Shown piece after piece: positions 1,531-47,481 of a stretch of 64,000 nucleotides of DNA (within the stretch, counting starts at the first letter, position 1; each line of letters starts with the position of its first letter). The notes under the pieces were generated by a model that saw only the letters and a program-made list of their open reading frames with translations, did not search any database and was not told where the DNA came from. Made by a program: the position numbers and the translations under genes. The stretch covers positions 59,572-123,571 of the forward strand of contig JAMOMK010000104.1 of assembly GCA_027067055.1 (NCBI GenBank), written 5' to 3'. Source of the stretch: Lysobacterales bacterium. GTDB lineage: Bacteria; Pseudomonadota; Gammaproteobacteria; Xanthomonadales; Marinicellaceae.

Positions 1531-1584
1531 TTACACAAAACATTTTTATTGGTGGGCAAGCCCGCCTTACGACTGGTTAGTAGC

Positions 1585-2721
1585 ATGTCTAAATATGATG
1601 TTATAACATTAAGCCAAGAATTAATTAAAAGACAATCAATCACCCCAAATGATGCAAGTTGCCAACAACTACTGGCACAACTTTTAAGTGATGCAGGTTT
1701 CCAAATTGAGCACAAACGCTTTGGCGAGGTCGACAATTTGTTTGCTTGGCACGGACAAGACAGCGAGAACTCCAAGAGCTTCTTATTTGCAGGGCACACC
1801 GATGTTGTACCAACAGGCGATAAATTTGCATGGAAACACCCACCCTTTTCTGCTATTGTTGATGACGATTATCTCTATGGGCGAGGTTCTGCGGATATGA
1901 AGTCTGCTGTTGCTGCTTTTACTCTTGCAATGATTGATTTTGTTAAAAAAAACCCAAGACACCAAGGCAAGATTGCTTTACTAGTGACTAGTGATGAGGA
2001 AGGTCCTGCTACAGAAGGCATTAAAAAGATGATGCCTTATATTGCTAAAAAGCATAAATTTGACTTTTGTTTAGTTGGTGAGCCTTCAAGTTCAGAAAAA
2101 CTAGGTGATGTGGTTCGAATTGGTAGACGTGGCTCTTTACATGTTGAGATTACTATTCATGGCAAACAAGGACATGTAGCTTATCCGCAAAATGCTAAAA
2201 ACCCAGTATTCCTAGCTGCACCATTTATTCAGGAACTATCGCAATTTAGCTGGGATGATGGCAATGATGACTTTCCACCCACCAGTTTTCAAATTTCATC
2301 AGTTACAACCTCTAGCAACACATCTAATATTATACCTGCTGATATGGTTATTAATGCTAACTATCGCTACTCGCCAGAATCATCAAAGCAATCACTTGAG
2401 CAACAAATAAAGCATTTGCTTAATAAACACTCTCTTGATTACTCACTTGCATGGAACTTATCTGGGCTTCCATTTTATAGCCAGTCTACTTATTTACATC
2501 AAGCTATTTCTAAAAGCATTGATGAAATATGTCACATAAAACCGCAATTCAATACAGCTGGCGGTACTTCAGATGGTCGATTTATTGCACAGTATGGTGT
2601 TGATGTGGTGGAACTGGGCGTCATTAACAAAACCATTCATCAAATTAATGAGTGTGTTTTAACCAAAGACATAATTAATCTTGAGAAAGTGTACCAAAAG
2701 ATTATAGTCCGTGTTTTATAA
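1585..2721 (+). CDS. dapE: Succinyl-diaminopimelate desuccinylase (M20 peptidase)
   Basis: M20 metal-binding motifs AGHTDVVP and GRGSADMK, and the 'dimerisation' lid region. Start placed at ATG 1585 (MSKYDVITLSQEL..); the track start at 1549 lies in an intergenic palindromic repeat. Confidence 0.85.
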   Translation: MSKYDVITLSQELIKRQSITPNDASCQQLLAQLLSDAGFQIEHKRFGEVDNLFAWHGQDSENSKSFLFAGHTDVVPTGDKFAWKHPPFSAIVDDDYLYGRGSADMKSAVAAFTLAMIDFVKKNPRHQGKIALLVTSDEEGPATEGIKKMMPYIAKKHKFDFCLVGEPSSSEKLGDVVRIGRRGSLHVEITIHGKQGHVAYPQNAKNPVFLAAPFIQELSQFSWDDGNDDFPPTSFQISSVTTSSNTSNIIPADMVINANYRYSPESSKQSLEQQIKHLLNKHSLDYSLAWNLSGLPFYSQSTYLHQAISKSIDEICHIKPQFNTAGGTSDGRFIAQYGVDVVELGVINKTIHQINECVLTKDIINLEKVYQKIIVRVL

Positions 2722-2742: not shown

Positions 2743-3462
2743 TCATTCAATCCAAGGTTTTCTTTGTTTGTATAAGTTGAGACGCTCATAGTAGCTTGGT
2801 TTGGCATCTTCATCAACTTTTTTCATTTCATCAATTAACCACTGTTGTAGTGTGATGGCAGCTCCAAAGTCTGAAACCGATGCTAAAACTGCAGCTTTAG
2901 TGTCCCAAATATGCCACGGTATTAAATCGTCATCGTTAAAAATAGCCATTAAATTTGATATGACTTTCAAGGCTTTTTCTGGATTCCTACATCTTTCACT
3001 CTTAGATGTAGCTAAAAACCAAGCATGGTTATTATAAGCGACTTCCACCTCTTTTTGCTCTGCTTTTTCAAACCAATCATAAGCAACATGGCAATCTTTC
3101 TTAAGCCCCGCTCTCCCAAAATAATGATACAATGCAATTTGATCTAAAACCGAACCCATACCTAAGTTTGCAGCTTTCATGTACCAACTCAAAGCTTCTT
3201 CGAACTTTGATTCGTTTTCAAATTCAATAGCCAACTTTTCCATCGCATGAGCATAACCCATCTGAGCTGCTTTTTTTAGCCACTTAAGCCCCTTATCATA
3301 GTTGGATGCAAATTTTTCTGAACCTTCAAAAAAAGTCGAGGCAATAAAATAGGCAACCTCTGCATTTCCACTGTCGACCTGATCAACTAAAGTTTGAGGA
3401 ATAGTAAACTCATCTTTAGCATAGACACTAAAAGACAAGAGTAGAATAAGGAGTTTATTCAC
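2743..3462 (-). CDS. Sel1/TPR-like repeat protein, probably secreted
   Basis: Repeated ..A..WY.KAA.QG...A...L pattern (GYAHAMEKLA, WYMKAANLGMG, WFEKAEQKEVEVA). A hydrophobic N-terminus is present if the GTG start at 3462 is used (VNKLLILLLSFSVYA). The longer track ORF to 3594 would overlap the upstream gene. Confidence 0.55.
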   Translation of the reverse strand: MNKLLILLLSFSVYAKDEFTIPQTLVDQVDSGNAEVAYFIASTFFEGSEKFASNYDKGLKWLKKAAQMGYAHAMEKLAIEFENESKFEEALSWYMKAANLGMGSVLDQIALYHYFGRAGLKKDCHVAYDWFEKAEQKEVEVAYNNHAWFLATSKSERCRNPEKALKVISNLMAIFNDDDLIPWHIWDTKAAVLASVSDFGAAITLQQWLIDEMKKVDEDAKPSYYERLNLYKQRKPWIE

Positions 3463-5980
3463 TGCGCAATTCCTTTTCAAAATAATGACCTCTTTGTTTA
3501 TAGTTATCAAACTCATCAAAGCTTGGAGCGCCAGGAGACAATAACAGTGTATGATTTTTTGGCGTATTTTCAACAGCAAATTCAATTGCATCAACTAATT
3601 TTTCAAAATAGTTATAGGCTATAGATGAATTAATCCCATTTAAATAATCATAAATGATTTTTCCACTCTGCCCTGTTAACAACAATAAAGCTGGAGGGGA
3701 ATTATCTAACGCCTGAGTAAACTCACTCCACTCATTGCCTCGATCAAAACCACCAACGAACAAAGTCGTTGTTGAGCAATTCTGTGTTTTTAATGCCGCC
3801 AAGGTAGCAATTGGCGTTGTTGCAATACTGTCATTGATAGCGAAGTGACAACCTATTTTACCTAAATTTTGCAAACGGTGTTCTAGTGGCTCAAATGCCT
3901 TGATTGCCTTTAAACACGTTGTAACATCAAGTTTTAGCTCATTACAAATGGTGAGAACAGCACCTATATTTTCCAAATTGTGTTGGCCAATTAGCTGTAT
4001 ATCATCTATTTGTAATACTTCGACATTATTTAAATAGAGTGATTTTGCTACAACATGAAAAGCATTTTTAACATTAAATAACACACAATCCATCTTGCTG
4101 GTTCTTTTAACTAATTCTTCATTTTTTGCATTGATTATTTTTGTCGTTGCTTTATTTAGTAGTTTAAGCTTATCTGTAAAATAATTATCGGCACCCTCAT
4201 GCCAATCCACATGCTCAGGGTATAAATTATTAATTAAGGCAATATCTGCTTGAATTTCTCCATCATATATCTGAAAGCTTGAAGCTTCTAAAACGATATA
4301 ATTACAATCACTTGATGCCGAAATCAAAGGTGTGCCAATGTTGCCAACTAAGTTGACTTTACAACCCAAAGACTCCAAAACATGATTCAATAAACTAACG
4401 ATGGTACTTTTACCCTTAGTTCCAGTAATGGCAATAACTTTGGTGTTTTTTTCATTGGCAAACCACAATGCGGTAGCTGAAGTAAATTGTGCCTGTGAAC
4501 TTTTTACTAACTCTGAATAGGGGCTAATTCCAGGTGATTTAACGACAATACCATACAAATCAAGTAATGCAACATCAACTTTCTTAGTTTCACAGTTGTA
4601 CCTTTCATCTTTTTCTTTTTCCGAACACAAAACTGTAAAATCAATCCCATGTTTGTACAAATAATCTGCAACTGCCCTACCCTCAACTCCAAAGCCCCAA
4701 ACGGCTATTTTTTTATTGCGTATATTTACCAACTTTACACTTGTTTTTTGCTTAAAAAATTGCACCAACTTATCTGTTTGCCAATTACTCTTATGTTTAA
4801 TCAAATCAAATGCCAGTCTGCTTTCCTGTATTTCACCCACGCATTCAAATGGTTTAAACCCTTCATAACCTAACAACTCTGCAAATCCTTGCTTTTGACT
4901 GTCATCATCTAATAGGTTGTGACCAAAGATTTTTAATAACTCAGGTTTTTCGACATAGGGAGCCAAGCCTAGAAAAACAAATCGACACTTGGGACAATCA
5001 CAGCACCACAACGAATTGTTATTATACGAACCATCAATATGAAAGTTACGATTACAACTTGAAAACACAGGGAAATACTGAGAATACTTGGCAAATTTTT
5101 CTAAAATATCTAATTCAGAAAATTGCCTTTGTTGTGAATAATAATGCACATCTTGAGTGATCTCATTATAAACTACAGCAGAAAAGTCCTTTTCAAACTC
5201 AAAACTTTTAGAATATTGGTGGTTAACCTTATCACCATCAGCATTTATGGTGTTTTCTGAATCTGCCGATTTTTCATTGGAAAAAACCACCTCTTGGCAA
5301 TCAAACAATAAAGCAGTCAAAACAGCAATAGATGAAATGATTGATGTAATCGGTACATGCCCATTAATTGCGCCAGCTTTATTATAAGCAATTAGTTTAT
5401 CGTCTATTTTGCGTTTAATTTGGATTAAGGGTAAATCAATAAATTTTGCCACATCTTTAATCAATGATGAGTTTCCAACCATAAACAAAGAGATGCTTTT
5501 ATTCTGTTGTTTTAGCTCTTCAACAGTAACTAAAGAATCTTTGCCACCACCTAGAGCAACAAGCGAGTGTTTTAAAGGGGTCAGTACCCTTTTATGTTCG
5601 ACTTTGTCTAGTAAAAGGGTGCTGACCCCTTTAAAACATTCTCGCAAGGAAATTTTATTCTCAAACGCTAATTCAGCCAGCCCATGAAACCACGTTTTCT
5701 TAATAAAATTTAGCATGAGTTCTGAGGGGTGCTTGAATTGAAAATTTATTTCTTTTGCTAAGCCTGACTTATAGTAGCTTACGCCACACATCCAGTGAAC
5801 CAAATTACAAGCAGCGTCAATTTTGTCTTTATTTATACGACTAGTTGAAAATGGAGGAAAAGACAGAATTTCCGTCACTTTTCCAATAGTTTCAATCTCA
5901 TAATTCAACAATAGCTTATGGTTTGATGTGTCCAAATGCCAATCAAGGAATGTAAAAGTTTGGTGAAATAATGCTGTCAT
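3455..5980 (-). CDS. Two-domain protein: N-terminal PP-loop-like (GGGKDS) ATP-pyrophosphatase-type domain fused to a C-terminal MurD-like Mur ligase
   Basis: C-terminal about 420 aa: KIAVWGFGVEGRAVA (Rossmann), ITGTKGKST (P-loop), LIGQHNLENIGAV and LLSPGAPSFDEFDNYKQRG are MurD hallmarks. N-terminal about 400 aa: LVALGGGKDSLV resembles the SGGxDS PP-loop, with CxxC pairs (CCDCPKC). Confidence 0.7.
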   Translation of the reverse strand: MTALFHQTFTFLDWHLDTSNHKLLLNYEIETIGKVTEILSFPPFSTSRINKDKIDAACNLVHWMCGVSYYKSGLAKEINFQFKHPSELMLNFIKKTWFHGLAELAFENKISLRECFKGVSTLLLDKVEHKRVLTPLKHSLVALGGGKDSLVTVEELKQQNKSISLFMVGNSSLIKDVAKFIDLPLIQIKRKIDDKLIAYNKAGAINGHVPITSIISSIAVLTALLFDCQEVVFSNEKSADSENTINADGDKVNHQYSKSFEFEKDFSAVVYNEITQDVHYYSQQRQFSELDILEKFAKYSQYFPVFSSCNRNFHIDGSYNNNSLWCCDCPKCRFVFLGLAPYVEKPELLKIFGHNLLDDDSQKQGFAELLGYEGFKPFECVGEIQESRLAFDLIKHKSNWQTDKLVQFFKQKTSVKLVNIRNKKIAVWGFGVEGRAVADYLYKHGIDFTVLCSEKEKDERYNCETKKVDVALLDLYGIVVKSPGISPYSELVKSSQAQFTSATALWFANEKNTKVIAITGTKGKSTIVSLLNHVLESLGCKVNLVGNIGTPLISASSDCNYIVLEASSFQIYDGEIQADIALINNLYPEHVDWHEGADNYFTDKLKLLNKATTKIINAKNEELVKRTSKMDCVLFNVKNAFHVVAKSLYLNNVEVLQIDDIQLIGQHNLENIGAVLTICNELKLDVTTCLKAIKAFEPLEHRLQNLGKIGCHFAINDSIATTPIATLAALKTQNCSTTTLFVGGFDRGNEWSEFTQALDNSPPALLLLTGQSGKIIYDYLNGINSSIAYNYFEKLVDAIEFAVENTPKNHTLLLSPGAPSFDEFDNYKQRGHYFEKELRSE

Positions 5981-6119
5981 TGAAAATAAACATGATAAAG
6001 TTGGTGAGGAGATTTTAGCCTATCTGTATTTGATAAACAATTAACAAATTAAAAAACCCCCAGCTAAAGCCAGGGGCTGCCAGTATTTCAACTGGCAAGA
6101 GAGAGAAGTCTAAAACTTT

Positions 6120-6683
6120 TTAAAATTCAGCTACTTGAACATTAACCTGAATTCTAACCCTGTCACCAGGATGATTCTGCATTCTAGTATGGTAAGTTCT
6201 ACCAATGTATTCATAGGCTACATCGTATCCAGTGATGCGTTGTTCTTCATAATAATCACGCTGTGTATAACATTGTCTACGGCTATTACGATTATTGTGT
6301 CTAGAATTTGAATACCTAGAGTTGTAACGTCTATTATTTCTATCTGTACCAGATCCGATAGCAGCTCCAGCAATAATCCCTACAGCTGTTGCAGCATCTC
6401 GACCGCGACCATCACCAAATCGGTTACCTAACAAACCACCGATTATTCCACCGAGTACAGCTCCACCTCCGCTACTAGTTCGGCGCTCTCCATAAGATCT
6501 TCCACGAGGACCTCTGTTTCTGTCTTCACAGACTCTTCTGTTTTGTGGTACACGAATTGTTTCATAAATTGGTTGCACATCAACTACAGGAGCATAAGTG
6601 TATTCATCATAACGACCCGCACTTGCGAAAGTTGCAGCCATCATCAAAGTCATTCCTGCTAATATATTTCTAATGTTTTTCAT
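6120..6683 (-). CDS. Glycine-zipper 2TM / 17-kDa-antigen-like outer-membrane lipoprotein, Arg/Asn-rich
   Basis: Signal peptide MKNIRNILAGMTLMMAATFASA. GAVLGGIIGGLLG and GIIAGAAIGSG glycine zippers. Low-complexity RNNRN tail. Confidence 0.6.
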   Translation of the reverse strand: MKNIRNILAGMTLMMAATFASAGRYDEYTYAPVVDVQPIYETIRVPQNRRVCEDRNRGPRGRSYGERRTSSGGGAVLGGIIGGLLGNRFGDGRGRDAATAVGIIAGAAIGSGTDRNNRRYNSRYSNSRHNNRNSRRQCYTQRDYYEEQRITGYDVAYEYIGRTYHTRMQNHPGDRVRIQVNVQVAEF

Positions 6684-25560: not shown

Positions 25561-25659
25561 TTATATTTGTACAAATTGATGAAGAAGAGGAGATAGATTA
25601 TATTCAAAATAGTAATAACCCGCTGCACCAAGTATTCCTATGATAATTAGATTTTTCAT
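25561..25659 (-). CDS. 32-aa hydrophobic micropeptide (MKNLIIIGILGAAGYYYFEYNLSPLLHQFVQI). Its ATG overlaps the TGA stop of the giant ATPase gene (ATGA).
   Basis: Hand translation. Not in the ORF track (under 60 aa). Single predicted TM helix. Confidence 0.3.
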   Translation of the reverse strand: MKNLIIIGILGAAGYYYFEYNLSPLLHQFVQI

Positions 25660-28600
25660 AGTTTTTTACTCTTCGTTGTTTTTTTAATAATAGTTTGAAC
25701 AGATTTTGTAGAGCTCAAATCATTGAGCTGTTTACTCAGTTTAGTGACTTCTTCTAAGACTTCCATGTTGATTTCCAATTTTTTATTCATGGCTACAACA
25801 ATGGGGACAAAAGAGTTTGTCATGGTTTCTGAAAGTGATGTGAGAGCATCACCTAGTGCTGGTAGTGGGTTGTTGATTACTTCAACATCAAGATTAAGTT
25901 TGCCAATGGCAGAGGTGATCGCTTTGACTTGTGAGCTTGTCGCTGTTTTCGACTGAGCTTTGTCCTCTCGAATAGATGACGATAAATTATCTAGGTTTTC
26001 TTTCAAGCCTGAGATTTGTGAGGCAATTTTAGTCGCCCCATCTTCATCACCAGCTACAGAATTACGAATTTTGAATTCTGTTTTTATCTGAGACCATCGC
26101 TTGGCTTCACTTTCGGTTAACACTCCACGAAGTTCTTTTAGTTTGAGTAAGTTTTCCTCTGCTCCTGTGGTTAACAATTGGGCTTCACCGACATAATGAT
26201 CATCAATCAATAGCTGTAGTTCTTTTTCATCCATAATGGCAACAATTTTTTCTGCCAACTTATTCATATTTCGGTAGGAACCTTGTAATTTAAACGAGGG
26301 TTCTTCACGGTATTTATCATCCATGGCAGCAGAGCGAATATACTCTTGATTGACCGACAGTATCACTTTTTGCACTTTGAATAAGGCTTTTAGCACGGTG
26401 GTTATTTCATTGATTTCACTGCCAGAATAACTGTAAGATAAATCCGAAGTAGCAACTTCTTTGCCTTGGGCTTTATCCATCAGCAAATACAAGTCATTCA
26501 TGTCACGCAATGCCAAAGGTGCGAGGACTTTGTTTGAAGTCAATGAGTTCTCGATATAACTCATGGAGAATATCTCTTGTTGGCCACTTAACACATCACC
26601 CAAATTATAGACATCGGCACGATTGGCTAACATGTCAGGAATTTTGAACACTTCTCCTGATTCGGTGTAAGGGTTTCCTGCCATAATGACACAGAATTTC
26701 TTGCCACGAAGGTCATAAGTCTTAGGCTCATTTCGCCAAACACCTTCAATCCTGCGTGTACCATCACATAATGAGATGAATTTCTGTAAAAATTCAGGGT
26801 GAGTGTGTTGAATATCATCCAAATACAACATGGCGTTGTTGCCCATTTCTAAAGCGAGATTAAGTTTTTCAAGCTCTTGTTTTGCCGTAGCATTGGGTGC
26901 ACCAGCTGGATCCAGTGATTTAACATCGTGTCCAAGTGACGGGCAGTTAATCTTCATAAAGTTCAAGCCCAAACGATTAGAAACGTATTCCATCAAGGTG
27001 GTTTTACCGTAACCTGGAGGTGAAATTAACATTAATAACCCCATTAAATCAGTGCGTTTTTCTGCACCTAACGCACCCATTTGTTTGGCTAAATTGTCAC
27101 CAATAATAGGTAAGTAAGATTCGTTAATCAGTTTATTTCGCACAAAGGATGACAAAGGTCGTGCTTTGAATGATTGTAAATTCATCGTAGCTTTTTGTGA
27201 TTCCATAATTGAGGTTTTCACTTTTTTGAATTCATTATAAGCTGGCACAGTATCCTTGCTGTAATGGCTTAATCTTTCTATAAATTCATCCACTTCAAAA
27301 GCAATGATTCTATCATTAATATTATTGTGATCACCTAATAAATTGTTGGCTTCACAGTGCATGTCCTTGGGGTTTTTACTAAAAGAATCGCTTGATTGCA
27401 TCACTATATTGACGATAGCTTCATTCAAATAGCGTTTGTTTTGTGGTTGTTGAGATTGTTCAATCAAACCTGATAACCAATAGCCAATATACTGCCACTG
27501 GCCTTTGGGTGAATCCTTAAGTTCTACTAATGTCGCGTTAAAATCATTGCTTTCAGTGCTGGTTTTGAAAAAGGTATGCAGTTGTTCTACTAAATCTGCC
27601 GCTTTGTGCGACACATCGAATTGCTTCTTATCAACGCTTAAGAAATTAATTAAATAATCTGCTGAGTTAAACAATAAACCTTCATCAAATTCCATTTCAA
27701 ATTGCTGATAAAATTTATGCATGTTTATTTGCAATTCTGCTTTTAAATCTTTAAGCATCTGTACGCCACCAAAAGCCTGTTGTATTTTGTTAGCAGTTTT
27801 GGCTTGTTTGCTAGTAAGTTTTTTAAATTTTTCATCTCCAACATTGAGCCAATAATAACTGGCAATACCTCGAGCTGATGGGCTAAACCGCAATAAAGGC
27901 TGGGTTTTGTATTTGTCTAAAAGACTGCTCAAAATCATTGTTGCATCGTTATCGTGCACGCCTTTTTCATAACCTTCCTGATAACGAGGTGAGGCATAGT
28001 CCTTAACGATTTTTGTAAGTGCTTTGTCGCTTTCAAATAGTTTCTCTAGACTCAAATCATTGTTATTTTCTAAGGCATCGGTAAAGATGGAATAAGCCAG
28101 ATATTCAGCTCGGTAAATATCGCTATTTTCTGAAACCAAGGTTTGTTGCCAAAATTCACTCAAGTTATTTAGTAAATCATTTTCTACAGTCTCGTAATAT
28201 TCCGTGCCCGATAAATGAAAGGCAAGTTTGCCATCTTTGGGCAAGATGGTTAAATCCAATGCTTGAGTATTGACACTAAATTTGTGTTTACCAAACTTAA
28301 TGGCATTACCACCATCTTCAAAGATGTCTTTTTTATCACGCAGTGATCGTATTGCTTGCTCTTTTAAGGCTTTGAGTTTGGCTTCGACATCATCGGCTTT
28401 GACATTATCATTTATATCACGTAGCTTTAAAACTAAATCGCCGACTTTCATCACCGTTGGATCGGATGAAAAATAGGTGTTGAGCTCGTCATTTTCACTA
28501 AATTTTAGGCTGCGTTTTTCTATGCTCTTTAATATTCGTGTTACGGCTGTTTGCAGTGATTGGGCTTTGCGTTGCCTTTGATCTAGCAGGGTTTGCTTGC

Positions 28601-30884
28601 GTGCTTCAAAGGTTTCGTGAATCTCATCTCGCTTGGCATAGATTTGATCTAAAAACTCATCATTTTCACTAAAGATACTTTCCAATTCTTCCAGTTGCAC
28701 TAGCAATCGCGCGAGTTGTTCGTCACAGGCATCGGGTGTGTCGGCATTGGACACTCCGTTAGAAATGCTTTGCGATAAAACCGCAAGTTGAGCACCAAAC
28801 TCAGCAACTGACTCACCAGCGGACAATTCCTTGCTGGTTAATTTGGCATGGGCTTTGGTTTGGTTAATACGACTGTAAATTGTTGAAACGGATTGTAAAA
28901 TTTTCGTTTTAACCGTTGTGTCATCAATTTCTAAACCATTAATCACTTCACTCAAGGCATCTAAGCCATGGCTCATTTCATCAAGTTGTTCTAAAATAGG
29001 CTTTAGGTCTTTAACAGTTTTAATTTTTTCTATACTTTCGTGAACTTCATCCACAACATTACTGTAATAGCCCATCGAATTTTCTTGCGACAAGAACTCA
29101 ACAGTCCGTTTACCCAATTCATCTATTTCTTTATCCACTTTGGCTGAAATAGTATCCAACTTATCTAAATTGATATACCGGTAATCTTTGAGGGAAAGCA
29201 AATGGCCTTTCTGGCGCTTAAGTTTTAACAGTCCATCGACAAATGGAGCTGGTGTATCCCAGTTAGAAATAGCTATTTCTTTGAGTAAAACTTTGAGTTT
29301 ACTTTGCGCCTCTTTTAAGGCAAGTGATGATTGTTCGCTAATGGCACGAACTTTTTCAAATTCATCCAATACCAGCTCGGATGTATTGCCAATTTCTTTT
29401 AACTGACTGGAAAACTCTCCTATATCATCGTTTTCTAACCAATAATAGCCATCGACTACACGTTGAATATTTTTGATTAAATCTTCATACACCAAGATAC
29501 TGGGTTGTTGTTCGCTTATCATTTTGGTGATGGTGTAAAGCTCTGAAATTCCTTGCACCAACTCAGCATTTCCGATAGTCGCTAAAAAAGTTTTTTCACT
29601 GCTGTTGGCTATGGAATATTCTTCGCTGGTATAAGGTGTTTGCCAAATTTGCATGGGATGAATACGAGTTGGTTCATTGGATTCACTGCGAAAAATTATC
29701 ATCTTGCCATCATCATATAGTGAGTAGCCATGACCAAATATTGGACTGGAGAGTTCCTTACGAATCATGTTGTAAGAAAACAGAGCAAACTTGCCTTCAT
29801 TTTGCTCATAAAACACATAAAGAACATCTTCGCCGTTGGGTGAATTCCATTGGCGTTTAAATTTTAAGCCACTTATCTCTTCGTCAAATATTTTGGATTC
29901 ACCACTTTGTAAATAATAACCTCCAGGGAATATAATACCGTGCTCATTGGGTAAACTGATGCAAGCATAACCAATGGCATCAATGCGTTTGACATCGTGG
30001 TTGCGGGTATTGAAGACGAAATAACGCCATATTTCTTCTTTGTATGGCAGAAACTTCAATAAGATTAAATGACCAACTCGCGCATAGAATATCTCAGCAT
30101 CATCCAAGGATTGATGCGCTTCTTCTACAGACTCACTGTAGATGCCTTCACCATCCTCGGTATTATCCTCAATCTTGATAGTTAAATCACCGCCAACGGT
30201 TTCGACAAAGATTTCATCCATTATTGAAACATGCGGATACTTTCCTTCTATGAAGTTTTCACGCTTGGTAGCAATCCATTCGAAATCGTAAGCTGGCGGC
30301 AATTCCATATCTCGTTCGCCACGGTCATCAATGTACTTGATTTGACCATCTACTGATAAATCCCATCGGAAGACGCGAACATCAGAAATCCTATCGCCAA
30401 TTTGAAAACCAGCGAGTAATTTTTGGTTGTTAATCCTTAATTGTACTAGGTGTGTGTTTTTGTAATAACTGTATAACTCAAAAAATTGTTTCTGGAATAA
30501 GGGATCATCCAAAAAACTGCCACTTATGCTTTCAGGCTTAACATCAAACTTTCCATCTTTTTCCTGTAATGAATATAAGGCAAAGACGTCAGATATCTTG
30601 GTTTCCTTTTTTAAACCGATAAAGACATTGTAACCAAACAGCAATTGTCCATTGATGCGTACTATATCACGAGGGGCGCAATTATTTTCGGTGCGTACAC
30701 GTACACGGTCGATAACCTCAAGCACTGTTTTACCAAACTCTTCTTCGCGTTTTTGATTTAACGATTGAATGCCAGCTTCGAGCTTTTTGTTTTGTTCCTC
30801 AAGACGTTTACGTATGACTTCATATGAGCCACCTTCGGCTACTGCCTTGTTTATTGTATTATTTTTTGTATTCTCTTCTGCCAC
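25656..30884 (-). CDS. Giant (1742 aa) protein with a single MoxR-class AAA+ ATPase module. Family not recognised.
   Basis: Walker A PPGYGKTT. Walker B AMLYLDDIQH. Sensor/MoxR-like CVIMAGNPYTESGEVFKIPDMLANRADV. Coiled-coil N- and C-termini; the N-terminal third is beta-rich. Confidence 0.8.
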   Translation of the reverse strand: MAEENTKNNTINKAVAEGGSYEVIRKRLEEQNKKLEAGIQSLNQKREEEFGKTVLEVIDRVRVRTENNCAPRDIVRINGQLLFGYNVFIGLKKETKISDVFALYSLQEKDGKFDVKPESISGSFLDDPLFQKQFFELYSYYKNTHLVQLRINNQKLLAGFQIGDRISDVRVFRWDLSVDGQIKYIDDRGERDMELPPAYDFEWIATKRENFIEGKYPHVSIMDEIFVETVGGDLTIKIEDNTEDGEGIYSESVEEAHQSLDDAEIFYARVGHLILLKFLPYKEEIWRYFVFNTRNHDVKRIDAIGYACISLPNEHGIIFPGGYYLQSGESKIFDEEISGLKFKRQWNSPNGEDVLYVFYEQNEGKFALFSYNMIRKELSSPIFGHGYSLYDDGKMIIFRSESNEPTRIHPMQIWQTPYTSEEYSIANSSEKTFLATIGNAELVQGISELYTITKMISEQQPSILVYEDLIKNIQRVVDGYYWLENDDIGEFSSQLKEIGNTSELVLDEFEKVRAISEQSSLALKEAQSKLKVLLKEIAISNWDTPAPFVDGLLKLKRQKGHLLSLKDYRYINLDKLDTISAKVDKEIDELGKRTVEFLSQENSMGYYSNVVDEVHESIEKIKTVKDLKPILEQLDEMSHGLDALSEVINGLEIDDTTVKTKILQSVSTIYSRINQTKAHAKLTSKELSAGESVAEFGAQLAVLSQSISNGVSNADTPDACDEQLARLLVQLEELESIFSENDEFLDQIYAKRDEIHETFEARKQTLLDQRQRKAQSLQTAVTRILKSIEKRSLKFSENDELNTYFSSDPTVMKVGDLVLKLRDINDNVKADDVEAKLKALKEQAIRSLRDKKDIFEDGGNAIKFGKHKFSVNTQALDLTILPKDGKLAFHLSGTEYYETVENDLLNNLSEFWQQTLVSENSDIYRAEYLAYSIFTDALENNNDLSLEKLFESDKALTKIVKDYASPRYQEGYEKGVHDNDATMILSSLLDKYKTQPLLRFSPSARGIASYYWLNVGDEKFKKLTSKQAKTANKIQQAFGGVQMLKDLKAELQINMHKFYQQFEMEFDEGLLFNSADYLINFLSVDKKQFDVSHKAADLVEQLHTFFKTSTESNDFNATLVELKDSPKGQWQYIGYWLSGLIEQSQQPQNKRYLNEAIVNIVMQSSDSFSKNPKDMHCEANNLLGDHNNINDRIIAFEVDEFIERLSHYSKDTVPAYNEFKKVKTSIMESQKATMNLQSFKARPLSSFVRNKLINESYLPIIGDNLAKQMGALGAEKRTDLMGLLMLISPPGYGKTTLMEYVSNRLGLNFMKINCPSLGHDVKSLDPAGAPNATAKQELEKLNLALEMGNNAMLYLDDIQHTHPEFLQKFISLCDGTRRIEGVWRNEPKTYDLRGKKFCVIMAGNPYTESGEVFKIPDMLANRADVYNLGDVLSGQQEIFSMSYIENSLTSNKVLAPLALRDMNDLYLLMDKAQGKEVATSDLSYSYSGSEINEITTVLKALFKVQKVILSVNQEYIRSAAMDDKYREEPSFKLQGSYRNMNKLAEKIVAIMDEKELQLLIDDHYVGEAQLLTTGAEENLLKLKELRGVLTESEAKRWSQIKTEFKIRNSVAGDEDGATKIASQISGLKENLDNLSSSIREDKAQSKTATSSQVKAITSAIGKLNLDVEVINNPLPALGDALTSLSETMTNSFVPIVVAMNKKLEINMEVLEEVTKLSKQLNDLSSTKSVQTIIKKTTKSKKL

Positions 30885-31003
30885 GATGATACCTTTTTAA
30901 GATTTTTGATGATGGGCGGAGCCCATCTACGTCGGATTTGGGGTGTTGAACTTAATCAACAAAGCCCCAAATTTCTGTGGACTAAAGTCCACACCCCTTG
31001 GTT

Positions 31004-32998
31004 TTAAGTTTCCTTATCTTCGCCTTGGCTTTCATCCTTATTCCTTGCTAAGTTCTTAATCATCTTAGTGACACTTGCCACATCAAAGCTTTGTCCTGTG
31101 CCAAGTTTCATCACTTTTGAAACAGCGGCTTGTAGGACATCTGATTTACCAATGGCTCCATCAACAGCCTTACCAACAGCAAGAGAACTCATGAATTTTT
31201 CTAAGAAATCACCATTACCACCGACAATATCGATGTTCGCTTCTTTGAGCGCTTGTGCCAAAATATGCGCTTGTTTATCAGCAATTTCAGTATTGGCTTC
31301 TATCGCGGTCATGTTTTCTTTATGTGCTAAATCTAATGCCATACGGAACTCTTCATGTCCTCGAACATCTTGATTCATGGTTCCTAAAGCTTCAAACTTC
31401 TCCTCTAAACCTTTGGCTTCTGCTGCGTAACGGAGTTGAATCACCTCGGCTTCAGCTTCACCACGTTTCTTAATGGCTTCGGCTTCGGCTACCTTGATTT
31501 TAACATCAACCATGGCTTGTTGTTCTTCACCTTTAGCATCCGCTTCTTTGACTCTTACATGCGCCATACCCACTTCTTCGGCTCCCATAGCTTCTGCCTT
31601 GAACTTACGTTCTTGTACAATAGCTGCGGCAATTCCAGGGGCTGCTACTTTTTCTTTAATACCTTCAGCTAAGCGAATCATCGCATCGGCTTCTTTGCTT
31701 GCAGCTTCGCGTTCGGCTTCGGCTAAGATTATACGTTCAGAAGCCTTATGTTTAGCACGCGTTTCATCGGCTTGTGCGGCTTTGATTTCTTTTATTAACT
31801 CTTGTTCAGCGATGGCTTCAGCATTAATCACATCAGATTTTTTGTTACGTAGTGCCTCTTCAACTAGGCGTAATTCTTTGATCTTTTCTTCCTGCTCGGC
31901 TACGGTTCGCTCTACCGCTATGCGCTCACGGATAACATCGGCTATGTTTTTCTTTTCAACTTCGATGTCTTTTTCTGCATTAATTTCTTGTAAGGCTACT
32001 TCACGTTCGCGGCTAACAATTTCAACTTCTCTGGTACGAATGACTTTTTCTTCTTCAATTGCAACAGCGCGTTTGCGGTTGTTTTCTGCCACTTCGACTT
32101 CGCGTTGTTTGTTTTCTTCTAGCACCTGAACTTCTTGCTCCATGGCAATACGAGCTTGCTCTGATTTAAGTTTTTCTTCAGATTCAATTTTTTCTTGTTC
32201 TGCAGTTTCACGTGCCTGAACTGACGCAACTTCACGACCTTGTTTTGCAACAGCATCCGCTTCTATCCGTTCAAGTTCTAAAATACGTTCACGGGCTTCA
32301 ACATCTCGTTTTTTAATACGCGTTTCTTCATCACGTTCAAATTCATTGGTAAGAATATGTTGTTTCGCAGTCAATTCGGTAATTTTACGAATACCTTGCG
32401 CATCCAAAATATTGTTTTCATCCAATGCACCAATAGGTGTTTGTTCCAAATAATCAATAGCGGCATCTTCTAACACATAACCATTTAAATCCTTGCCGAT
32501 GACCATGATAATTTCATCACGAAATCTATCTCGCTCTTCATATAATTCCTCGAAATCTAACTTCTTACCCACAGTTTTTAAGGCTTCTGAAAATTTTGCA
32601 CTGAATAATTCATCAACCGTGGCTTGTTTGGATGCCCGTTCACAACCTATGGCTTGCGCCACCTTGAGTACATCTTCTTTGGTCTTGTTGACTCGTACAA
32701 AGAAAGTCACTTTAATATCAGCACGAATATTGTCCTTACAAATCAAACCATCTTGTGCTCGTCTATCTATTTCGATAGTTTTTAGAGAGATATTCATAAT
32801 TTCTTTTTTATGAATGATTGGAATGACTAATCGGCCTGTAAAAGTCACATCTGGTACAGCACGTAATGTGTTAACAATCATGGCTTGGCCTTGATCGACC
32901 TTCTTGTAGAATTTCATTAAAATAAGTGCTAACCCCATAATAACGAGGAAAATAATTCCCGCATAGGTTGCAATGGCTATTAATAAATCACTGTTCAT
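31004..32998 (-). CDS. Flotillin (SPFH/band-7) family protein with a long Glu/Ala-rich coiled-coil (YqiK-like)
   Basis: N-terminal TM, SPFH domain, then about 300 aa of EA-rich heptads. Confidence 0.85.
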   Translation of the reverse strand: MNSDLLIAIATYAGIIFLVIMGLALILMKFYKKVDQGQAMIVNTLRAVPDVTFTGRLVIPIIHKKEIMNISLKTIEIDRRAQDGLICKDNIRADIKVTFFVRVNKTKEDVLKVAQAIGCERASKQATVDELFSAKFSEALKTVGKKLDFEELYEERDRFRDEIIMVIGKDLNGYVLEDAAIDYLEQTPIGALDENNILDAQGIRKITELTAKQHILTNEFERDEETRIKKRDVEARERILELERIEADAVAKQGREVASVQARETAEQEKIESEEKLKSEQARIAMEQEVQVLEENKQREVEVAENNRKRAVAIEEEKVIRTREVEIVSREREVALQEINAEKDIEVEKKNIADVIRERIAVERTVAEQEEKIKELRLVEEALRNKKSDVINAEAIAEQELIKEIKAAQADETRAKHKASERIILAEAEREAASKEADAMIRLAEGIKEKVAAPGIAAAIVQERKFKAEAMGAEEVGMAHVRVKEADAKGEEQQAMVDVKIKVAEAEAIKKRGEAEAEVIQLRYAAEAKGLEEKFEALGTMNQDVRGHEEFRMALDLAHKENMTAIEANTEIADKQAHILAQALKEANIDIVGGNGDFLEKFMSSLAVGKAVDGAIGKSDVLQAAVSKVMKLGTGQSFDVASVTKMIKNLARNKDESQGEDKET

Positions 32999-33053
32999 AT
33001 TTTTGCTCCGTTTGTATTTGAGAAATTCTAACTTTTGTTAGAATGACGGTCTT

Positions 33054-33704
33054 TTATAGTTTTGCTACGTTATAGCAATCATCTTTTTCAATGTATTCGA
33101 TAAGGATTACCTTATCCCCTTTTTTAATTTTTTTATCTACTGGCGCTCTTATTGATAAAATCATTCCAGCTTCACCATCTTCCAATGTTGCTTGTCCAAA
33201 CTCTTCATTAACTTTACCTGTTGTTACTTCACACTCTTGCCCAATAAGTGTACTTTTCTTTACTGCTGTATGAGCGATAAAGAAGCCTTTAAATGGCCTT
33301 ATTGTTAAGGCTGTAATTGGAATAGATATGGCAAAACAAACTAAAATTAAAGCTACTCCTATTGCATAACGTACTATATCTATTGGTATATGGACTAAAA
33401 TAAGCGATGTAGCCAGATAACATATTAGCCATGAGGTAACGATTAATAATGACAGAACAACTGTGATTGGTACTCCTGTTAAACCCCAGTTGAGCATAAA
33501 TCCGGCTAAACCACTTAAACCTTCGGCATCTGGATTGATACTGACTTCAGTCTCAAAATCCGTTTCAATCTCAATATCAGCATCAAACATCTCAATGTCA
33601 ACGACACCTATAAATGCCATCATCCAGTACAAAAGCACGATAATTAACAGAAATGTGTAAACTACCACAGGAAATGTTGTTAAGTTTGCTAAAAATGTAT
33701 CCAT
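33054..33704 (-). CDS. NfeD-like membrane protein (YqiJ-like) with a C-terminal OB-fold
   Basis: Polytopic N-terminus plus C-terminal GQECEVTTGKV..GEAGMILSIRAP..KGDKVILIEY. Immediately upstream of the flotillin gene, as in NfeD-SPFH operons. Confidence 0.7.
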   Translation of the reverse strand: MDTFLANLTTFPVVVYTFLLIIVLLYWMMAFIGVVDIEMFDADIEIETDFETEVSINPDAEGLSGLAGFMLNWGLTGVPITVVLSLLIVTSWLICYLATSLILVHIPIDIVRYAIGVALILVCFAISIPITALTIRPFKGFFIAHTAVKKSTLIGQECEVTTGKVNEEFGQATLEDGEAGMILSIRAPVDKKIKKGDKVILIEYIEKDDCYNVAKL

Positions 33705-34042
33705 TATTTTTTCACCTCATCACTTTTACTTGCGTGTTTAATTAGTATTTCTGCTGCACGTTTTTTTATCTCTAATTTATTGTCTTCTTCTACACCAAAT
33801 TTTTGAGCTAAAAACTTCATGTCTGCACCATTTAATGAAATGGACAACCGCAGTCGTTTCGGTTTTCGTGATATTTTCAACCCTAACAATTCACGAATTC
33901 GATCCGAGGGATTGAGATCCCTGTCAAGCGCTTCCTTGCGAATGACGTATTGAATCTTTTCACCCACATCAAAGGCAACTTGTGTGGCTTTAATGGCTTT
34001 TTCTTCTTTTTCCCACTTTTGTAGGATTTTTTTCTTTTTCAT
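33704..34042 (-). CDS. Hypothetical Lys-rich 112-aa protein; its stop shares one base with the NfeD start
   Basis: ORF, with translational coupling (TAATG). Confidence 0.45.
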   Translation of the reverse strand: MKKKKILQKWEKEEKAIKATQVAFDVGEKIQYVIRKEALDRDLNPSDRIRELLGLKISRKPKRLRLSISLNGADMKFLAQKFGVEEDNKLEIKKRAAEILIKHASKSDEVKK

Positions 34043-34130
34043 AGGCTGGCTGTTTTATTTAAATTTATGTCGTCACATAAACCTTATCTTATTTATCAAG
34101 GCGCCCAAAAGGGACGCCACTACCTTTTAA

Positions 34131-34841
34131 TTACGCTTTCTTCTTGGAGCTTTTTGCTTTTAAACGTGCCAACACCGCTTCTGCAGCACTTTGCGTATCA
34201 CCAATACCAGCCTCTTTCATCTTGTCTGATAAGTTTTTACCACTATTTTCAGCATCTAACTGATCGGCGGCTAAGTTTCTATCATCAAAGTCTTCTTGTT
34301 TTTTACGGATTCTGTCCAATGATTCTTTTGCAGACATCAAGGTCGAATCAGTTGTGCCAAAGTTGTCGGTAATGGCAGCAGTGGCTTTTTGTACATTTTC
34401 AGTAGTTTTCACCATCGTTAATTGACGTTCATAATCCTTGAGCTGTCTTTCGGCTTTTTCCATCATGCTTTTGAGTTTTCCAATGTGCTTTTCATACGAT
34501 TGTTGTGCATCAACTTGCTGTGCCTTATCTTGTTCAAGCTCTGCCACTTTAGTGGCAATTTCCAAAGCTAAGGTTTCTTCTTTTTTGGCTAAAGCATCAG
34601 CAACATAGCCTTCATTTTTGTCAATTTCTGCCGTTATGGATTCAACCTTTCGTGATGCCTGCATTTCTTTTGCCATCACTTGGGTTAAATCATGTTTAGC
34701 TTTTTTCAAGCTTTCTTGAGCATCTTCAATTTCTTGTTCAAAGATACGCGTGCCTTGAGAATCGACTATCGACTCGCCTAACTCACGCGTTCCACCTCGA
34801 ATTGCTGTCATTATTTTCTTTAATATGTTCATGTTATTCAC
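34131..34841 (-). CDS. PspA/IM30-family protein (YjfJ-like; ESCRT-III superfamily)
   Basis: Coiled-coil PspA pattern: MNILKKIMTAIRG..E.IVD...R.FEQEI.DA...L..A... Confidence 0.8.
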   Translation of the reverse strand: MNNMNILKKIMTAIRGGTRELGESIVDSQGTRIFEQEIEDAQESLKKAKHDLTQVMAKEMQASRKVESITAEIDKNEGYVADALAKKEETLALEIATKVAELEQDKAQQVDAQQSYEKHIGKLKSMMEKAERQLKDYERQLTMVKTTENVQKATAAITDNFGTTDSTLMSAKESLDRIRKKQEDFDDRNLAADQLDAENSGKNLSDKMKEAGIGDTQSAAEAVLARLKAKSSKKKA

Positions 34842-34856
34842 CTTATAAATGTTACG

Positions 34857-35264
34857 TTATTTTAAAAAGTCTTCCATAGCGGTAACAACATCTATGGCAT
34901 TTTCATTAAGTGTCACCACTTCTTCTACAACTTTATCTAAATTTGAATTAACCGACAATGCTCCATAAAGAACAAATCGATTACCCACTCGCGCATAAGC
35001 AGACAGTGGTATGGAAATACTGGTATCGAGCATCATTTCTAACATTTCGACGCGCTTTTCTGGCTTAACTTCATCTTCTGACCATAAATAGACAATACAC
35101 AATATTTGGCTTTGGGTTTTGGTCATAAATATAGGGAAACCATTCATTCCATTAACTTCAACCTGCAAAACTTCCACTTCTCCATTAATAGTTTGGCAAT
35201 CAAAAGTAAATCCCTCTTTCGTTCTATTCTGCGATATTCGTATAGCGTAATCCTGTATATTCAT
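34857..35264 (-). CDS. YjfI-like (DUF2170) protein
   Basis: Resembles the partner of PspA-like YjfJ in the E. coli yjfIJ operon. Start taken at MNIQDYAIRISQ (135 aa). Confidence 0.55.
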   Translation of the reverse strand: MNIQDYAIRISQNRTKEGFTFDCQTINGEVEVLQVEVNGMNGFPIFMTKTQSQILCIVYLWSEDEVKPEKRVEMLEMMLDTSISIPLSAYARVGNRFVLYGALSVNSNLDKVVEEVVTLNENAIDVVTAMEDFLK

Positions 35265-36133
35265 TCTTGTTTTTCTCCTAACAGTTTGTTTGCTTAATGA
35301 CATAATATGGCAAATGCCATAATATGTCAAGGTATTTTTGACATATTATGGCGTAAATAATGTAAATCCTGTTGAAATCAACTATAAGGAGAATGGTTGT
35401 ATAACATGGAATTGGACGATGATAGACCACATTAATGGCTCTATCTGAAATACAGTGGGTAATCTAGTCTAAATTATTTCACATAAGAAGAAATTTACTG
35501 TCTTATGGATTGATTGAAATTTCCTCCATTGTGTAATTTTTACTTATACAAGTAAACTCTCAACACAGGGGGCTGGACTTTACTGCAATTTGTTTTATAC
35601 ATTGATACCAGCATTAGACTTAAATTTTAATACTCTAGTCAAAGCAGGGTTCACCAACCAATGACAATAAATAAAAGCACAAAACTTTCAGTTAATATCC
35701 ATTGCTAGAAACTCTACTTTTTTAAGAAACTTGCAAAGAGCAGTGTACTGGAAGACTGTTTTGATGAAGTATTGATGATTTAAATTGATTACTTTTATGA
35801 AAAGGTAGTATTAAAAATACGCGACTAAAGTCACGTCCCCAGTTTTGATTGTGGGTTTGTTTTAGGCAGCCAGTATAATCATCTACCCACTTAATTTCAT
35901 ATAGAGCCACATTAATTTACCGCCGCGATAAGGAGTTATTATCTTACAGGCTTCTACTTTTATTTTTTCTGATGCAGAGAAAAGGAATTTATAAAGTTAT
36001 GTTGTATTTTTTCTGATTAGATTGCTTTAGAAATTTTCTTCATCAAAGAAGAAAAATTGAGCTTACGAGTAGTAAGTGAAATTTTTCTGATGCAGAGGAA
36101 GGAGGTTTATGAAGTAATATCATCAGAAAAAAA

Positions 36134-44278: not shown

Positions 44279-44752
44279 ATGGCATTAGCTCCATTAACTG
44301 CAACTGGTGCAGAACGATTAAAAAAAGAACTTAAAAGACTGAAAACAGAAGAAAGGCCGCGTATTATTGAAGCCGTTGCAGAAGCACGTGCTCATGGTGA
44401 TTTAAAAGAAAACGCAGAATACCATGCAGCACGTGAAGAACATGGCATGAACGAAGCGCGTATCAAATATTTAGAAGGCACCATTTCAAATGCTCAAATT
44501 ATTGACATCCATAGCTTGAATGTTGGTGACAAAGTGGTATTTGGTGCAACAGTTACACTAGAAGATGATGATGAAAATGAAGTGACTTATCAGATTGTTG
44601 GCGATGTTGAGGCGGAAATTGAAAAAGGTCAAATCTCCATTTCTTCACCTATTGCACGGGCTTTAATTGGTAAAGAGTTAGATGATGAAGTCGAAGTACA
44701 AACACCAGGTGGCAATAAAACTTATTACATCATTAAAGTTAAGTACATATAA
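44279..44752 (+). CDS. greA: Transcription elongation factor GreA
   Basis: [26 protein letters not shown] and the FKBP-like C-terminus. Confidence 0.9.
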
Positions 44753-44755
44753 ATT

Positions 44756-45298
44756 TTATTTGAATTTATTACAAAAAAACCCACTTGGCAAAAGTGGGTT
44801 TTTCATTTGCAGGGTGCTACTTAGTGCCCCACCAAAATCAAGCATTAATTCTTTGATTTTATTTTCTGACTTTTCAGCTCTCATTGCATACCAGCTGATG
44901 ATTTCACTATCACTCATTGAGTCAAGGGATGTCGCTATCGCGCGGTAGGTATTAACCCGGAACCCGGTAATCAATGGGGTCAAAGCATTTGATTTACCTT
45001 CCTTTTTTATGAATTCAACGCTTCTTTTGAGCCTTGCCTTTAAAGGAGCTATAGAGGTCAACACCCTTAAATGCCAAGTCATTGTTTTAATTAAATATTT
45101 GACAACAAATTGACAACATCTATAAAAGCTTTCTTGATTAATAAAAAAACCACCGCTAGGGTTGTGTTTGATATAAGTTTGAAGACGTGACATTTCTGCT
45201 CTAATTGCATGGTGTGAGAGGTCTTCGAACTTGAGTTTAACAAAAATGATTAATGTTATCCAATTGTATTTAATCAATTGGTGGAATAAAGTTTTCAC
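44756..45298 (-). CDS. Hypothetical 180-aa ORF downstream of Fic; its last 15 codons are encoded by the greA terminator hairpin
   Basis: ORF only; may be spurious or a gene remnant. Confidence 0.3.
   Translation of the reverse strand: MKTLFHQLIKYNWITLIIFVKLKFEDLSHHAIRAEMSRLQTYIKHNPSGGFFINQESFYRCCQFVVKYLIKTMTWHLRVLTSIAPLKARLKRSVEFIKKEGKSNALTPLITGFRVNTYRAIATSLDSMSDSEIISWYAMRAEKSENKIKELMLDFGGALSSTLQMKNPLLPSGFFCNKFK
44772..44801. terminator. Bidirectional intrinsic terminator (A-run, ACCCACTT-ggca-AAGTGGGT, T-run) after greA
   Basis: Read directly. Confidence 0.6.
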
Positions 45299-46415: not shown

Positions 46416-46626
46416 AATATTTGCAATTATTTACTTAGATAATTAACATTATTTACCATATGTTTAAATTTTATATACATATATAGTAGATACTATATTG
46501 ATATCATTGATTATTTTACCATAAGGACAATGAATTTATTTACGTTATATCGTAACATTAAGTACATTAACGGTATACTTTATTTACAATTTATACAGTT
46601 ATTTGTATTTGACAATACATGACTAA

Positions 46627-47210: not shown

Positions 47211-47481
47211 AGCATTTAAAACAAGTGATTATTTAAAATCAAATGAAGACAGAGCCGAATATTTAAAAGCCATCATGGCACAAAATAATGAAGGCTTGCT
47301 AATGCTTGCCATTCGTGAAATCATTGATTCTATGGGTGGTATTGGCAAACTAGCTAAGGAAACTGGTTTAGCAAGGGAAAGTCTATACCGTACATTTAGC
47401 AAAAAAGGAAACCCAACTTATAATACTTTATTCAAAGTATTGGATAATATCGGTTTACAATTGAGTGTATCAGTTAAATAG
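47197..47481 (+). CDS. HigA-like HTH antitoxin ('addiction module antidote protein', COG3636-like)
   Basis: MSKAKAFKTSDYLKS.EDRAEYLKAIM.. followed by an HTH (LAKETGLARESLYRTFS). Start at ATG 47197. Confidence 0.7.
   Translation: MSKAKAFKTSDYLKSNEDRAEYLKAIMAQNNEGLLMLAIREIIDSMGGIGKLAKETGLARESLYRTFSKKGNPTYNTLFKVLDNIGLQLSVSVK

Follow-up and report, generated by a model that had tools for sequence, protein, structure and literature searches.

Which step of cell wall synthesis is served by a protein that joins a Mur ligase to a domain found in no canonical Mur ligase? The question is raised by an 841-amino acid (aa) protein encoded in a 64,000-nucleotide stretch of DNA (hereafter the window; positions 59,572 to 123,571 of contig JAMOMK010000104.1, assembly GCA_027067055.1) from a Lysobacterales bacterium of the family Marinicellaceae. 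Its open reading frame (ORF) runs uninterrupted on the minus strand from position 5980 to position 3455. An earlier reading of the letters alone, referred to here as the original prediction, proposed that the gene is either a fusion of the epimerase MurL to the ligase MurD2, the two enzymes of an alternative D-glutamate (D-Glu) route of peptidoglycan synthesis, or a new Mur-ligase-coupled adenylating enzyme. We conclude, with a probability of roughly 0.87, that the protein is a bifunctional enzyme of the alternative route, combining a MurL epimerase with a MurD2 ligase. This route was discovered in 2017 as a pair of separate enzymes and has been reviewed since (PMC8788868, PMC5808125). According to these reviews, MurD2 adds L-glutamate (L-Glu), and MurL, which requires ATP and Mg2+ and forms AMP, works in the L to D direction only. 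The organisms concerned are without D-Glu-forming genes, and the experimental enzyme data are confined to the enzymes of Xanthomonas oryzae, Micromonospora and Salinispora. The fused gene is an example of this known pathway, found in the order of its discovery, and no new kind of system. The analysis itself shows the identity of the domains, the conservation of their motifs, the similarity of fold, the signature residues and the contexts of the genes. The two reactions, the formation of AMP and the one-way direction that we ascribe to it are borrowed from the literature on the separate X. oryzae enzymes, and by the same analogy the fused protein would perform both steps.

Profile searches divided the protein in two. 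The NCBIfam model NF041275 (UDP-N-acetyl-alpha-D-muramoyl-L-alanyl-L-glutamate epimerase, MurL) matched residues 7-418 over model positions 8-417 of 447 with an E-value of 4.6e-127, and the murD model TIGR01087 matched residues 424-837 with 292 bits, above its cutoff of 212. For the identical protein in the database, the precomputed Pfam domains are MurL_N (PF26299), MurL_epimerase_C (PF26298) and Mur_ligase_M, and within residues 423-816 the Mur ligase middle domain was accompanied by weaker MurD-like N-terminal and Mur ligase C-terminal domains. The ligase half also aligned over its full length to solved MurD structures in a HMMER search against PDB (4buc, E-value 3.7e-41; E. coli MurD, about 4e-34). 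These matches bear out the description of the C-terminal half as MurD-like in the original prediction, which had also remarked, rightly, that the N-terminal 400 aa are part of no canonical Mur ligase; a match of residues 1-400 to MurL, suggested there as a check, is what NF041275 provides. With both MurL domains in place and the chirality residues of MurD2 in the ligase half (see below), the MurL-MurD2 fusion is the correct one of the two readings on offer, and the new adenylating enzyme was abandoned.

The motifs that are invariant in the MurL family (GGGKDS, NGHVP, NHQYSKS, SCN, WCxxCxKC and KPFEC) are all present in the N-terminal half. Alignments of 92-95 homologues contained 30 invariant columns, all placed on the fused protein's own numbering, among them G146, K147, S149, C309, C326, C329, C332 and C380 as well as K376 and P377 beside the last of these cysteines. 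Since the mean column identity in these alignments is only about 27%, the GGGKDS motif and the cysteine cluster are not there by chance. Both had been picked out beforehand, as a PP-loop-like motif and as CxxC pairs, and both proved to be features of the family as a whole, with the cysteines invariant in 92/92 sequences. The coordinates of these and all other features are collected in Table 1.

Table 1. Features of the fused gene and its surroundings, in window coordinates.
Feature	Position	Strand	Basis
Whole fused gene murL::murD2	3455..5980	-	841 codons plus stop at 3455-3457, ATG start; ORF list and translation
MurL half	4745..5980	-	NF041275 match; 40% identity to Stenotrophomonas MurL; AlphaFold model with pLDDT 92.2, pTM 0.92
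PP-loop-type motif GGGKDS, residues 144-149, predicted ATP pyrophosphate-binding loop	5534..5551	-	G146, K147 and S149 invariant in 95 sequences
Cysteine cluster C309-x16-C326-x2-C329-x2-C332, predicted QueC-type Zn site	4985..5056	-	Four cysteines in 92/92 sequences
C380 in KPFECVG, fifth invariant cysteine, candidate catalytic residue	4841..4843	-	92/92 sequences
Junction, residues 413-423, TSVKLVNIRNK	4712..4744	-	pLDDT 78 for residues 411-420; alignment to the Marinicella MurD2 N-terminus
MurD2-type ligase half, residues 424-841	3458..4711	-	TIGR01087, 292 bits; PDB MurD matches, E-values 1e-30 to 1e-41
Mur-ligase ATP P-loop TGTKGKST, residues 519-526	4403..4426	-	Aligns with E. coli GSNGKST (contains K115); nearly invariant in the family
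E589, chirality determinant, counterpart of E197 (X. oryzae MurD2) and D182 (E. coli MurD)	4214..4216	-	Alignment and PMC8788868
I719, at the position of E. coli MurD K319	3824..3826	-	Alignment; no Lys among 94 aligned relatives
R747, chirality determinant, counterpart of R358 (X. oryzae MurD2) and K348 (E. coli MurD)	3740..3742	-	Alignment and PMC8788868
P819-S-F821, where P819 and F821 correspond to P433 and F435 in X. oryzae MurD2 and to A414 and L416 in E. coli MurD	3518..3526	-	Alignment and PMC8788868
dapE (M20)	1549..2721	+	NF009557, 499 bits against a cutoff of 284
Terminator-like hairpin separating the fusion start from the upstream gene (6120-6683)	6055..6078	-	Consensus scan: 10-bp stem, 6 GC pairs, T-run

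Having identified the two halves, we asked which enantiomer of glutamate the ligase half is likely to use. The catalytic residues of Mur ligases are intact (K524, E565, H590, K604, N668/N671, R702 and D717), and as in all Mur ligases the reaction would be driven by ATP and proceed via an acyl-phosphate, here adding L-Glu to UDP-N-acetylmuramoyl-L-alanine. The choice of enantiomer has been traced to a handful of residues: E197, R358, P433 and F435 of X. oryzae MurD2 replace D182, K348, A414 and L416 of E. coli MurD, the double substitution E197D/R358K turns the X. oryzae enzyme completely from L-Glu to D-Glu ligation, and K319T makes E. coli MurD accept L-Glu (PMC8788868). We aligned the fused protein with E. 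coli MurD (NC_000913), a Stenotrophomonas MurD2 (locus L040) and the MurD2 of a Xanthomonas metagenome-assembled genome (MAG; locus L081). All three MurL-linked ligases, that is the fused protein, L040 and L081, carry Glu, Arg, Pro and Phe at the four chirality positions and Ile at the K319 position, and the HMMER alignment to PDB MurD gave the same correspondences. Among the wider set of relatives, position 747 is R in 87 of 89 aligned residues and position 819 is P in 86 of 89. Position 589 is more variable, with E in 59 and D in 29 of the 94 aligned relatives, and for this reason E or D at 589 alone is not a universal marker of chirality.

These data also bear on a first alternative, namely that the ligase half is an ordinary D-Glu-adding MurD, in which case the MurL-like half would be left for salvage or proof-reading of L-Glu or for an unrelated adenylation. 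Passing the canonical murD equivalog model would agree with such an enzyme, as would the Asp at 589 in a third of the relatives and the occurrence of Arg at the K348 position in D-Glu-specific streptococcal MurD as well. TIGR01087 is, however, older than MurD2 and has no power to separate it from MurD; the four MurD2-specific residues are all present, the K319 equivalent is not Lys, and in sequence the half resembles Stenotrophomonas MurD2 (33% identity, 220 bits) more than it does E. coli MurD (27%, 127 bits). Moreover, the sole known substrate of MurL is the product of MurD2, the D-epimer not being acted on, and the recurrent fusion of the two domains in both orders, described below, argues for consecutive steps. 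We therefore regard an ordinary MurD as quite unlikely. On the strength of its sequence the ligase half is MurD2-like and distinct from canonical MurD, with a predicted preference for L-Glu.

A single ORF spanning two enzymes could in principle be produced by an assembly or sequencing artefact, or by a recent pseudogenising indel that joined two overlapping genes. The source is probably a MAG, and in the nearest named relative, Marinicella marina (L017), murL and murD2 are indeed separate genes that overlap by 11 nt in different frames, counted from the ATG of murD2 to the last base of the murL stop codon, so that a single small indel at the overlap is enough to fuse them. Against such an origin, the identical 841-aa product was found in NCBI, JGI and ENA, on two contigs, one of 205,758 bp and one, from ENA, of 11,778 bp, and 21 homologues with 59-85% identity (P0002-P0022), from different projects deposited in JGI, NCBI, ENA and Logan assemblies, all measure 837-869 aa and have the same architecture. 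The junction is in frame, its flanks are conserved, and both halves were modelled confidently in one chain: the full-length AlphaFold model reached a mean predicted local distance difference test score (pLDDT) of 92.4, with a dip to 78 around the junction and values below 50 only in the loop of residues 121-135. Since the same product came from several sources, 21 homologues are fused and the full-length model is confident, we treat the fusion as genuine and an artefact as exceedingly unlikely.

The fusion would have arisen from a tightly coupled murL-murD2 gene pair of the kind seen in the relatives of the organism, where MurL and the MurD2-type ligase, here linked covalently, are encoded by adjacent, overlapping or fused pairs. 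The N-terminus of M. marina MurD2, MKLESLKDKTIAIWGFG, aligns with residues ~415-431 of the fused protein, VKLVNIRNKKIAVWGFG. At other loci (L002, L004, L005, L008, L018, L023, L035, L062 and L079) the two genes stand in the same frame with only the stop codon and 0-27 nt between them, and fused and split forms are thus one mutation apart. The CarB protein encoded in the window is 75-79% identical to that of several Marinicella species, a genus of the Lysobacterales (family Marinicellaceae), and ~71% identical to that of Lysobacterales/Xanthomonadales MAGs, which points to a Marinicella-like member of the very order where MurD2 and MurL were discovered. For the cell, a probable benefit of fusion is that both activities are equimolar and that the L-Glu intermediate stays nearby.

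As the original prediction had observed, the gene lies outside the division and cell wall (dcw) cluster: neither mraY nor ftsW occurs in the window and ~15 kb of flanking sequence (L001, ~5 kb to the left, and L085, ~10 kb to the right). Using tblastn with E. coli MurD, MurI and MraY, we matched only the fusion itself in the 64-kb window, and no mraY, ftsW, murI, second murD or D-amino-acid aminotransferase was found in the window together with L001 and L085 (~80 kb). The original prediction would have counted the lack of any other murD as a refutation, the gene then being the housekeeping MurD. That argument is mistaken, for MurD2 is the housekeeping MurD of such organisms, XOO_1320 being the gene annotated as MurD in X. 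oryzae (PMC8788868, PMC5808125), and the absence of another murD is what the pathway leads one to expect. The opposite pattern that it had named as support, a canonical murD in a dcw cluster combined with a missing murI, is metabolically incoherent.

Related genomes bear out such a housekeeping role, with the murL-murD2 unit placed in the dcw cluster. A saccharibacterial locus (L012; 6010-11684) reads mraY, one ORF, fusion and then ftsW, and in L013 (9971-13701) ftsW follows directly downstream of the fusion. In L015 (3008-12514) ftsW stands next to mraY and no murD intervenes; here the fusion is found 5 kb away. All three are candidate-phyla-radiation (CPR) genomes. A gammaproteobacterial MAG (L018; 8699-13398) has the order mraY-murL-murD2-ftsW, with the split pair in the mraY-ftsW slot. 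In the 80 loci listed, each ~20 kb long, tblastn searches for which E. coli MurD and MurI served as queries returned no second murD-like match and no murI.

Given a gene that sits outside the dcw cluster, among unrelated housekeeping genes and beside a Sel1-repeat gene, one might also suppose that a MurL/MurD2-like pair was recruited to make something else, for instance a glycopeptide other than peptidoglycan or a secondary metabolite. The characterised Xanthomonas-type pair, however, is likewise found outside dcw in the Lysobacterales loci. No biosynthetic-cluster genes lie near the fusion in the window, every near-invariant residue of the Mur-ligase half is present, and, as just described, other lineages have homologues next to ftsW or in the interval from mraY to ftsW. 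Recruitment for another product is very unlikely in our view, and a role in peptidoglycan synthesis remains the reading that we adopt.

We then examined how widely the fused form occurs. When the MurL half was searched against the full set of 1.84 billion cluster representatives, 1,080 proteins were returned at E<=1e-30; the best 150 of these 1,080 are mostly stand-alone proteins of ~450 aa, with 13 longer than 750 aa. Homologues of fusion length number more than 100. Among the 80 GTDB species loci listed, 14 carry a single fused ORF, and these belong to Peribacteria, Moraniibacteriota, Saccharibacteria, Staskawiczbacteria, Bacteroidales/Marinilabiliales, Eubacteriales and one uncultured gammaproteobacterium; cultured Lysobacterales genera in the same set have two ORFs. 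Overall, the fusion is present in Patescibacteria, Bacteroidales, Bacillota and proteobacterial MAGs, and the fused architecture is established and recurrent in the databases. Two proteins (P0064 and P0066) have the reverse order MurD-MurL, and because both orders exist the fusion must have occurred at least twice. A further protein, P0285, joins MurL to an aspartate kinase, the entry enzyme of the diaminopimelate/lysine branch. Published occurrence of the pathway is limited to Gamma- and Alphaproteobacteria and rare actinobacteria (PMC8788868, PMC5808125). Neither of these reviews mentions fused MurL/MurD2 forms, and a literature search beyond them yielded no in-depth treatment of MurL or MurD2.

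The reviews call the chemistry of MurL unclear and describe the protein as being without known conserved domains; their authors proposed that the alpha-carboxylate of Glu is adenylated (PMC8788868, PMC5808125). A search of PDB by sequence with the MurL half found no related solved structure. We built an AlphaFold model of residues 1-421 from a 95-sequence alignment (pLDDT 92.2; predicted template modelling score, pTM, 0.92), and a Foldseek search with this model placed QueC (2pg3) among the best structural neighbours, with an E-value of 2.7e-5. The predicted fold is nearest to QueC and other PP-loop ATP pyrophosphatases, in keeping with the PP-loop-like motif that had first drawn attention to this half. 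It has the Rossmann-like alpha/beta core, the N-terminal SGGxDS-type loop and the C...CxxCxxC motif of QueC-like enzymes. Profile comparison with hhalign set LVALGGGKDS of MurL on VVVFSGGQDS of E. coli QueC, and the C309-x16-C326-x2-C329-x2-C332 pattern of MurL recurs in QueC as C188-x8-C197-x2-C200-x2-C203, four cysteines that we take to be its zinc ligands. QueC, too, uses ATP to activate a carboxylate. Pfam and NCBIfam searches gave no QueC match in the MurL half, so that membership of the family has no support at the level of sequence, and because the profile comparison aligned the PP-loop segment alone, with a probability of 2%, the relationship rests on fold rather than on sequence.

On these grounds MurL would be an enzyme of the QueC type, with a PP-loop that serves to adenylate the terminal carboxylate and a Zn site of structural role. 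Its core would act as a QueC-like PP-loop ATP pyrophosphatase, holding ATP by the GGGKDS loop and adenylating the alpha-carboxylate of the terminal Glu, which would make the alpha-proton more acidic. Loss of this proton could be direct, proceed via an oxazolone, or follow transfer to C380 as a thioester, and stereoselective reprotonation and hydrolysis would then yield the D-epimer. The invariant C380 is accordingly a candidate catalytic base or thioester carrier. Zn binding by C309, C326, C329 and C332, in a structural role as in QueC, is predicted by analogy.

Several observations weigh against assigning both activities of the alternative route to this protein. The MurL half scored 424 bits with NF041275, a model named for Xanthomonadales, and did not reach its equivalog cutoff of 700, so that automatic name transfer by curators is not to be expected; the same cutoff is also missed by P0285 (494 bits) and P0013 (445 bits), and the missed cutoff reflects divergence of sequence with the architecture unchanged. 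On the ligase side, about a third of MurL-linked ligases have Asp at 589, and the Arg at 747 is shared with D-Glu-specific streptococcal MurD. The absence of murD, murI and D-amino-acid aminotransferase genes covers only the window and its ~15 kb of flank on a contig of 205 kb. The profile alignment of MurL to E. coli QueC is confined to the PP-loop segment at its probability of 2%, and the pTM of the full-length model is 0.66, leaving the inter-domain geometry uncertain; since this value does not fix the relative position of the halves, substrate channelling stays conjectural. Finally, no enzymology for the 841-aa protein or for any fused form was found in the searchable literature.

Combining the fold with the distribution leads to a broader proposal, to which we give less than even odds and which we put forward tentatively. 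It holds that the module that ligates L-Glu and then epimerises it is more widespread than published, that it was fused at least twice independently, and that MurL is a QueC-type PP-loop/Zn enzyme with C380. Its spread would take in Patescibacteria/CPR, Bacteroidales, Bacillota, Chloroflexia and Solirubrobacterales MAGs, in some of them at or beside the dcw position of murD, and the existence of both domain orders would imply obligate coupling or channelling of the L-Glu intermediate. The wider spread, the repeated fusion and the QueC-type frame for MurL were not found in the searchable literature; Pfam already models the MurL domains, and part of the proposal may be known to curators or published.

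These observations matter because they correct the annotation, extend the known spread of the module, show that it was fused more than once and offer a structural frame for how MurL works. An annotation that names neither MurL nor MurD2 gives the wrong substrate stereochemistry and hides the epimerase, and under such a name genome-scale metabolic models would show a missing source of D-Glu in these organisms. For Xanthomonas and Stenotrophomonas, the pathway has been put forward as a target of narrow-spectrum antibiotics (PMC8788868), an idea on which both its true taxonomic spread and a QueC-like active site bear. If true, a QueC-type MurL would be the first structural frame for an ATP-driven one-way epimerase. 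For studies of structure and kinetics, a MurL-MurD2 that occurs naturally as one chain is convenient to work with.

The surroundings of the fusion are an ordinary housekeeping context, with the gene order obg, an arsC-like gene, dapE, the Sel1-repeat gene, the fusion, a gene for a small YcfJ-like protein, sucD, sucC, pilB, pilC, a prepilin peptidase gene and coaE. The Sel1-repeat gene overlaps the 3' end of the fusion, and the hairpin ahead of the fusion start weakly suggests that these two genes share a transcript of their own. The fusion had been described as next to dapE; dapE is indeed nearby, but the Sel1-repeat gene stands between them. At a Bacteroidales locus (L016; 5185-9200) an M20-family peptidase gene comes directly after the fusion, compared with two genes' distance from dapE to the fusion in the window. 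This proximity of dapE/M20 genes may reflect a weak linkage between the Glu step and the supply of diaminopimelate, or coincidence; two cases being too few, we do not claim such a linkage.

Other parts of the window and its flanks yielded further observations. From the right edge onward (63000-64000, continuing into positions 1-10000 of L085) we found rsmI, lpoA (LppC), yraN, a BON-domain gene and a gene for a class A penicillin-binding protein with transglycosylase and transpeptidase domains; these are peptidoglycan-related and distinct from the dcw cluster. A stretch of low GC content (44700-54604; 25-33% against ~37% elsewhere), bounded by a tRNA-Phe gene (54529-54604, minus strand) and a tyrosine recombinase gene (53076-54131, minus strand), probably represents an integrated island, whose genes include one for a SoFic-like Fic protein (45270-46415; PADLOC SoFic, E-value 6.7e-55) and an ORF of 640 aa (47846-49768) that had no match in Pfam, NCBIfam or PADLOC. 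Lastly, a 1742-aa ORF (25656-30884, minus strand) matched DUF3686, 'ATPase involved in DNA repair' (663 bits), DUF7902 and an AAA domain, and is adjoined on the same strand by a 664-aa SPFH/Band-7 protein (31004-32998) and four small unannotated ORFs. The region 25656-35330 had no PADLOC match and could be an uncharacterised multi-gene system.

How does the fused protein compare with the systems that it resembles? With canonical MurD (E. coli b0088; PDB 1UAG, 2JFF and others) its ligase half has in common the three-domain Mur ligase fold, the P-loop, the position of the carbamylated Lys (K604) and the catalytic His, Asn and Arg. The two differ in the D-Glu pocket, with D182 replaced by E, K348 by R, A414 by P, L416 by F and K319 by I, and also in that the ligase is joined to MurL and is not located between mraY and ftsW. 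Where D182, K348, K319 and a place between mraY and ftsW mark a canonical MurD, we found E589, R747, I719 and neither mraY nor ftsW nearby.

QueC and the QueC-like PP-loop enzymes Cap9, QatC and the nitrile synthetase ArtA have the PP-loop at the same position as MurL and the same C...CxxCxxC motif, but their identity to MurL is only 12-16% over ~175 residues. In MurL, unlike QueC, residues 1-120 form an additional N-terminal domain and a helical region at the C-terminus carries KPFEC(380)VG; the outcome of the MurL reaction would be epimerisation and hydrolysis, whereas QueC-like enzymes form an amide or a nitrile.

The closest counterpart is the pathway of separate MurL and MurD2 enzymes. 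Both enzyme families are common to it and to the fusion, as are the order murL then murD2 of Lysobacterales operons, the chirality residues E, R, P and F, the order Lysobacterales and the location outside dcw. The fusion stands apart in its divergence, with only 40% (MurL) and 33% (MurD2) identity to the Stenotrophomonas enzymes and a MurL score under the Xanthomonadales equivalog cutoff, and above all in its form: the separate pathway is encoded by two genes, and here both halves belong to one 841-aa polypeptide with a junction of ~10 residues.

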